Positions 42,318-42,343 of a stretch of 64,000 nt of DNA are shown in pieces. The stretch is from Promethearchaeota archaeon (GTDB lineage: Archaea; Asgardarchaeota; Lokiarchaeia; Sigyniarchaeales; SOKP01), in the NCBI GenBank assembly GCA_019058365.1, contig JAHPZE010000018.1:17801-81800 (forward strand). Direction: 5' to 3'. Position 1 is the first letter of the stretch. Each line of letters opens with the position of its first letter. Both the position numbers and the translations under genes were made by a program. The notes beneath the pieces are model-generated. The model ran no database searches. It saw only the letters and a list, made by a program, of their open reading frames with translations, and was not told the DNA's origin.

Positions 42318-42343
42318 TTTCGTAAAATAACCGTTTCACGAAA
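42318..42343. repeat. Complete palindromic site (10-bp arms, 6-bp asymmetric core), dif/lox-like; centre of the array
   Basis: TTTCGTAAAA-TAACCG-TTTCACGAAA between convergent genes. Confidence 0.85.

Follow-up and report, generated by a model that had tools for sequence, protein, structure and literature searches.

A single complete palindrome between two opposed series of half-sites: a putative XerA-served gene-collecting hub in Lokiarchaeia

The 64,000-nucleotide window analysed here forms the end of contig C41 in a Lokiarchaeon metagenome-assembled genome (MAG; 4.74 Mb, 29% GC). Within a variable island with defence, toxin-antitoxin and transport genes, it contains one complete palindromic site, hereafter the hub, which is flanked on both sides by half-sites that have only one arm. 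The array system is real and widespread, and as far as sequence comparison goes, there is one complete site per array, the half-sites keep the hub-distal arm, and the segments between sites keep their end types. The best explanation, to which we assign a probability of about two in three, is a two-armed cassette hub that is served by a single tyrosine recombinase, most likely XerA of the host. To all appearance this is an archaeal system for collecting genes that has not been described before, with XerA as its probable enzyme. Such a platform would serve gene acquisition in those archaea that are nearest to eukaryotes; it gathers anti-virus and toxin-antitoxin genes and is invisible to integron or pdif searches.

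Organization of the array and its cargo

The sequence-only reading that preceded this analysis had described a complete palindrome with left-arm-only sites to its left and right-arm-only sites to its right, and this description was confirmed. The 26-bp site matches at exactly 42318-42343 (chance expectation, 0.03 matches) and is the single complete copy with a TAACCG core in the genome; it is accompanied by four half-sites with the left arm only (cores at 36706, 37973, 38866 and 39731) and, within the window, by ten with the right arm only (44668-63107; Table 1). Read toward the centre, arm plus TAACCG was named type A and arm plus CGGTTA type B; the order on the left, outward from the hub, is B, A, B, A. 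The window stops at the contig end, and the ends of both C41 and contig C11 lie within a repeat copied at C11:29156-29822, which suggests that the two contigs join. C11 carries 14 further half-sites of right polarity, and with these included the array is asymmetric, with 4 half-sites on the left and ~24 on the right. The centre (37676-44714) is covered with zero differences by a single 7-kb unitig from the source run, which stems from the same sample and is not independent, so the symmetry of the centre does not stem from a mis-joined inversion, a possibility that the earlier reading had itself raised.

Table 1 Features of the array within the window
Feature	Position	Strand	Remark
Half-site A, outermost left	36697..36711	+	arm + TAACCG
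Na/Ca exchanger	36838..37857	+	cargo
Half-site B	37964..37978	+	arm + CGGTTA
220-aa protein, no known family	38167..38829	+	cargo
Half-site A	38857..38871	+	
MNT-HepT toxin-antitoxin pair	39010..39646	+	cargo
Half-site B	39722..39736	+	1 mismatch
NB-ARC/STAND-TPR protein	39952..42303	+	cargo, innermost left
Complete site (hub)	42318..42343	.	arm + 6-bp core TAACCG (42328-42333) + inverted arm
HD hydrolase (weak dGTPase hit) and 168-aa partner (weak DarG hit)	42392..44306	-	cargo, innermost right
Half-site A, first on right	44668..44682	-	
Gene-less B-to-A spacer module	44674..44805	-	138 bp core to core
Half-site B	44806..44820	-	
NucS-C/PD-(D/E)XK nuclease-domain protein	44986..46503	-	cargo
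Half-site A	46642..46656	-	
ATPase with split Nmad2, radical SAM, GT2, Ig-EEP protein	46913..54477	.	cargo block
A (core mutated) + 134-bp spacer + B	54629..54777	-	
Block including PIN-domain protein	54946..57729	+	cargo
A + 137-bp spacer + B	57817..57968	-	
Decayed half-site A	58209..58223	-	2 mismatches
P-type cation ATPase	58498..61308	+	cargo
Half-site B	61882..61896	-	VapBC-cassette duplicate on C11 ends exactly at core
VapBC pair	61932..62617	-	cargo
Half-site B	63107..63121	-	array runs on into contig C11

The main open reading frames lie on the plus strand at 36.8-42.3 kb and on the minus strand at 42.4-50.3 kb, with mixed strands past 50.6 kb. The convergence of genes on the central site, which the sequence-only reading had stressed, is therefore present locally, but it appears to be due to chance: cargo orientation is random overall (177 genes toward the hub, 176 away), and the strands of the genes flanking the hub occur as +- (12), -- (8), ++ (8) and -+ (6), so that convergence at the studied hub is not general. 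The A-to-B cassette with the Na/Ca exchanger is 88-90% identical in genomes G001, G012 and G035, where it has other upstream neighbours; an identity look-up of the exchanger protein gave no match. The spacer module at 44674..44805 has a 96% copy on C11, also with different neighbours.

Several further features of the cargo were observed. A degenerate copy (78%) of 62545-62756, where vapB starts, with the sequence upstream of it, occupies 44463-44667 and ends at an A site. The Nmad2 gene (48095-48796) is split into two open reading frames beside the ATPase, and the Ig-EEP nuclease/phosphatase protein contains tandem 276-bp Ig-domain repeats (53545-54096). Left of the array, a defence-like block (26793-36611) includes a GHKL ATPase, a C5 methylase, DUF1802 and an operon with an SMC-like ATPase of the LmuB/Mad3 type. 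A cassette on C11 (L005:9009-9431) encodes a stand-alone protein that resembles the editing domain of archaeal threonyl-tRNA synthetase.

Half-site polarity switches at the one complete site, without exception among 59 half-sites in the seven genomes, the studied one included, in which a TAACCG hub was assembled together with its neighbours. In 80 metagenome loci, 1 of 106 half-sites violated the rule and two hubs were never found in one locus; the rule holds in a second genus as well. The first site 3' of the hub was of type A in 37 of 37 loci. Segments between sites were A-to-B in 43 cases, B-to-A in 45 and of the same type in 41. The armless sides of the half-sites resemble the arm no more than background sequence does and show a weak TTAA at +5 to +10; judged from their sequence, the armless side is not a decayed arm.

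One array, in genome G033, has no hub on its contig (C34). There, ten half-sites face rpsM-rpsD-rpsK genes (L048, L049, L126, L050), several A sites have a common 74-343-bp leader ahead of different cargo, and a 26-kb segment contains a gene block that by eye is BREX-like. Between G002 and G046, which represent different species, a 16-kb array stretch (L055-L056, L060) is 99.97% identical, either by recent transfer or by mis-binning.

Exchange at the core and a hub with two stacks

Among 9730 pairs of half-sites compared, 113 were at least 75% alike on one side only, while none was alike on both sides and none was alike between A and B. This one-sided homology supports recombination at the core well, and the 6-bp core is very probably the place where DNA is exchanged. 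The VapBC cassette has a 790-bp, 99.6% identical duplicate on C11 that ends at the core, two spacers are also duplicated within the genome with ends at the cores, and the duplicated cassettes are located within one arm. B-to-A segments are mostly gene-less spacers, of which 32 distinct sequences (median identity 0.47) measure 132-140 bp from one core to the next, with 26 at 137-139 bp; A-to-B segments almost never have this length. A B site 138 bp from the hub itself was found in G002, G035 and four metagenome loci. Neither a circular intermediate nor an alternative joint was seen in Logan contigs; the joints listed there had sides of 20-26 bases and were treated as repeat artefacts.

Following the logic of tyrosine recombinases, we consider it likely that these arrays are organized as a hub with two stacks. 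Half-sites would recombine mainly with the hub, as such a pair offers three good arms of four, and each of these reactions would give back exactly one complete site and one half-site. If the cores are in direct orientation, the block adjacent to the hub would be released as a circle with one half-site on it, or a circle of this kind would integrate; if they are inverted, the block would be flipped into the innermost position of the opposite arm, with reversal of the hub core. The end types of a segment could not change. The two-stack logic leads to mirror polarity without nesting and to recent arrivals near the centre. Recombination between the hub and half-sites bearing the distal arm predicts every rule of the array, and it also fits three further observations: one cassette family occurs on both arms in G063, the hub core in G042 is reversed relative to shared flank genes, and nine of ten outer ends follow a pattern with type A outermost on one flank and type B on the opposite one, the exception being an unexpected type at C11:17459. 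Support for the flip comes from one genome, G042, and the flank genes there are mobile.

That the central site is the active insertion point of the island, as had been proposed from the sequence alone, is supported by these data. The accompanying prediction that the youngest cargo lies at the centre fared less well. Mismatches increase with rank from the hub in the pooled data (rho 0.32, p 0.004) and in the studied genome (rho 0.38, p 0.045), but in the other genomes alone the trend is slight (rho 0.17, p 0.22), and recent arrivals near the hub are thus weakly indicated.

The 138-bp B-to-A spacer may be an adaptor, a flip switch or a latent hub; as adaptor or switch, it would let A-to-B cargo alternate. 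A unit of B, spacer and A is what a complete site would become after inversion with a bare core 138 bp away.

The recombinase, the other complete sites and competing readings

The genome has 11 complete sites that share the arms, each with a different core. Their spacer is always 6 bp, with none at 3-5 or 7-10 bp, and 119 permuted arms gave no match. Core uniqueness within a genome is expected by chance and was left out as evidence. The motif is present in 142 of 161 genomes of the class, in up to 15 copies and in some genera as a single one; complete sites occur in all 54 genomes of the genus, and ten of them lie on a single scaffold of G006. Nearly all sites are intergenic (452 of 459), and arm variants are uncompensated (13 single, 0 double). 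The conserved arm measures ~9 bp, compared to 11 bp in dif; it may resemble loxP and parS. The inner bases are AAA-N6-TTT in 136 of 136 sites collected, this pattern having been part of the search.

The ten sites with other cores are intergenic among housekeeping genes, and those that were compared occupy orthologous positions in relatives, where the cores are kept or drift slowly while the flanks diverge. Genes are gained and lost beside them, and a rearrangement between G003 and G006 breaks, at nucleotide level, within another complete site. These ten might be further targets of the same enzyme, a weaker suggestion than that made for the hub; their different cores would normally stop them from recombining with each other, and any of them could resolve chromosome dimers. 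Half-site arrays occur only at the TAACCG core, in two genera: of the complete sites with other cores, 30 that were searched (2 relaxed hits, 0.6 in controls) and a further 11 had none. About half of the genus yielded no TAACCG half-sites, among them two MAGs with a completeness rating of 97-100%, and no complete TAACCG site is among those listed for G006, G036, G049, G056, G105, G143 and G158. The TAACCG site is single-copy in the studied genome and missing from many relatives.

Some observations at these sites stand apart. A 7-copy palindrome resembling an IS end occurs in G000 at C21:130941 onward and at the ends of C1, C24, C25, C45 and C47; one copy, which starts ~25 bp away from complete site C21:130902, recalls the targeting of dif/pdif by the IS1202 family. 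At L002 (G000 C46:182009-183458), a 60-bp direct repeat ends inside the core of the complete site C46:183453 and brackets a 1.4-kb insert, with a half-site-like copy left at 182069. In G105, isolated TAACCG half-sites (L257, L264) lie 7-8 kb from complete sites with other cores, with no TAACCG hub there.

With regard to the enzyme, the genome encodes two PF00589 tyrosine recombinases. One is a XerA of 307 aa, encoded at L001:6986-7909 on the minus strand beside cdc6, that passes NF040815 (archaeal XerA equivalog); its relatives are 78-96% identical and mostly from records labelled Promethearchaeota (Lokiarchaeia), and it occurs in 133 of 161 genomes of the class. The second (429 aa) is patchy, with 10 of 54 genomes of the genus. 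The array-bearing genome G150 yielded no tyrosine recombinase besides XerA. Five of six Helarchaeales loci have a complete site, with five different cores in all, at most ~35 bp from the Xer start codon, which ties the arm to a Xer protein; this Xer is only 31% identical to the studied XerA, and a quick tree did not resolve a sister grouping of the two. On this basis, XerA is the likely enzyme of the array. Against this, xerA is unlinked to the array, no recombinase gene was found in any array examined, and the inner bases are AAA-N6-TTT rather than the TAA-N6-TTA of archaeal dif (PMC11840125). XerA had no hit in G042 and four other motif-bearing genomes, where MAG gaps are possible, and the motif is absent from the XerA-positive, single-contig genomes G026 and G075.

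In many, not all, relatives xerA is directly upstream of an orc1/cdc6 gene (L001:5659-7909), and a complete site lies ~2.5 kb upstream of xerA in G143, G090, L033 and L034. A palindrome between xerA and cdc6 was considered as the XerA target and set aside as the probable cdc6 promoter: it travels with cdc6, not with xerA, and its TATA-box-like variation breaks the symmetry.

The same hub might instead be run by a recombinase other than XerA, element-borne or unrecognised and acting in trans, with XerA using another site such as the palindrome between xerA and cdc6. The non-canonical inner bases and the missing linkage to xerA fit this reading, as do the further tyrosine recombinases encoded by several genomes and the Helarchaeales Xer, which may not be orthologous. 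We nevertheless regard it as unlikely, given the arrays in G150 with XerA only, the presence of complete sites throughout a genus in which the second recombinase is patchy, the association of the xerA-cdc6 palindrome with cdc6, and the lack of a clear canonical dif in the genome, where a search returned AT-rich weak matches only. Growth by nested shells, as proposed in the sequence-only reading, differs in mechanism rather than in enzyme: each incoming element would split the hub into left and right halves and bring a new complete site in the opposite orientation. The three core pairs that this reading had named do match across the centre, as do 9 of 12 in metagenome loci, and G035 has equal sides, but the fourth pair of the studied array differs (TAACCG at 36706, CGCTTA at 54629) and in G063 only two of six match. 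Nested shells need equal, matched sides, and the left/right counts in the seven genomes are 4/~24, 6/16, 6/0, 1/5, 1/5, 2/0 and 2/2; the confinement of duplicated cassettes to one arm also speaks against them. Because site orientation alternates, starting with type A 3' of the hub, mirror-matched cores are a by-product and any site looks like a mirror centre. By this comparison the one-sided arrays appear largely to refute nested shells, which we consider improbable.

Two further readings are very improbable. The central site could be the one dif of the chromosome, situated at the terminus and used by IMEX-like elements, in keeping with its 6-bp spacer between inverted arms, the one TAACCG copy and the genera with one site only. 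With 11 look-alike sites on this chromosome and up to 15 elsewhere, the palindrome is not the single chromosome-resolution site, and the TAACCG site is missing from the listed sites of seven genomes. Strand-corrected third-position GC skew and gene convergence gave no consistent terminus-type signal around all 11 sites, on short contigs with weak skew and weak power. The proposal of a unique chromosomal dif or terminus is not supported; multiple complete sites, found here as sites that share the arms, had been named beforehand as grounds for abandoning it. Alternatively, the palindromes could act as RNA hairpins or as operators for transcription factors, and the half-sites as weak operators of genes that were acquired; a multi-copy intergenic palindrome that in Helarchaeales is part of the xer leader and varies freely in its core would suit this. 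Such a role is at odds with half-sites that keep the exact core in both orientations, homology that breaks at the core, several sites between convergent genes and uncompensated arm changes, and neither a stable fold (z -0.8 to +1.6) nor a terminator was found.

Within the preferred reading of a two-armed hub served by XerA, a tentative extension, about which we are slightly more doubtful than confident, is that Lokiarchaeia have multiplexed a once single XerA/dif system: some ten dif-like sites with different 6-bp addresses would be distributed along the chromosome, of which TAACCG, in at least two genera, has become a bidirectional gene-capture hub that exchanges defence cassettes by way of one-armed sites and a 138-bp switch of fixed length, without a dedicated integrase. 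The system would run counter to the notion that each chromosome has one dif, and it prompts the question of how a recombinase with at least ten targets is kept under control in an archaeon without FtsK. With naturally orthogonal 6-bp cores and a single enzyme, the 20-bp site could serve as a Cre/lox-like toolkit, and a 13-bp motif finds such islands in any Lokiarchaeia assembly.

Relation to known site-specific recombination systems

No publication describing such arrays was found in a search mostly outside the subscription literature. About a dozen AT-rich viral contigs (L130-L148) have a longer palindrome in which the same arm is embedded, with AT-rich 6-bp spacers and no Asgard or Xer link seen; no Asgard link was seen for 19 viral palindromes, viral contigs contained no unit of B, spacer and A, and no phage or plasmid backbone was found. 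Shufflons and other invertible multi-site systems combine an active site with weaker partners, and IMEX at dif use the host Xer. Unlike these, the Lokiarchaeon array has no dedicated invertase and moves whole gene cassettes rather than gene tips.

XerA/dif of Pyrococcus, Thermococcus and Thermoplasma (PMC2958812, PMC8371274, PMC11840125) is alike in its inverted arms, 6-bp spacer and intergenic position, in suiting a single recombinase and in a host that encodes XerA. The tyrosine-recombinase-type site with symmetric arms that the sequence-only reading had recognized is supported. Archaeal dif is single-copy per chromosome (PMC8371274) with a conserved TAA-N6-TTA inner motif (PMC11840125), whereas Lokiarchaeia sites have 8-15 copies with different cores and AAA-N6-TTT, one of them with a cassette array.

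Integrons (IntI/attI/attC), which have also been reported in Asgard MAGs (PMC9668308), likewise take up cassettes at one active site and have dormant sites between them, a weak age gradient from the active site, and defence and toxin-antitoxin cargo. They differ in that the array has no IntI beside the site, no attC hairpin and two arms instead of one. XerA scores 97.9 bits, far below the integron-integrase cut-off of 265, seven regions folded no better than shuffles when examined for attC hairpins, and the cassette genes are not co-oriented but stand in either orientation, in the near-even split given above.

The dif (pdif) modules of Acinetobacter, including chromosomal islands (PMC13141974, PMC12907356), likewise consist of accessory and toxin-antitoxin genes bounded by short sites of Xer type whose spacer is 6 bp. 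Neighbouring sites are often inverted, modules are end-typed and alternate, the array has no recombinase gene, and shuffling is by inversion and deletion between matching spacers. Alternating orientation and two module types were largely found in the Lokiarchaeon array, as was reshuffling at matching spacers; complete sites on both module ends were not. Every pdif is a complete XerC/XerD site, whereas all but one of the Lokiarchaeon sites are single-armed and their arms point to one hub from both sides, are symmetric and take their orientation from the core only. The recurring fixed-length 138-bp module and the archaeal host set the array further apart. The system works like Acinetobacter dif modules and integrons, yet by their defining features it is neither of these, nor a single-copy dif.
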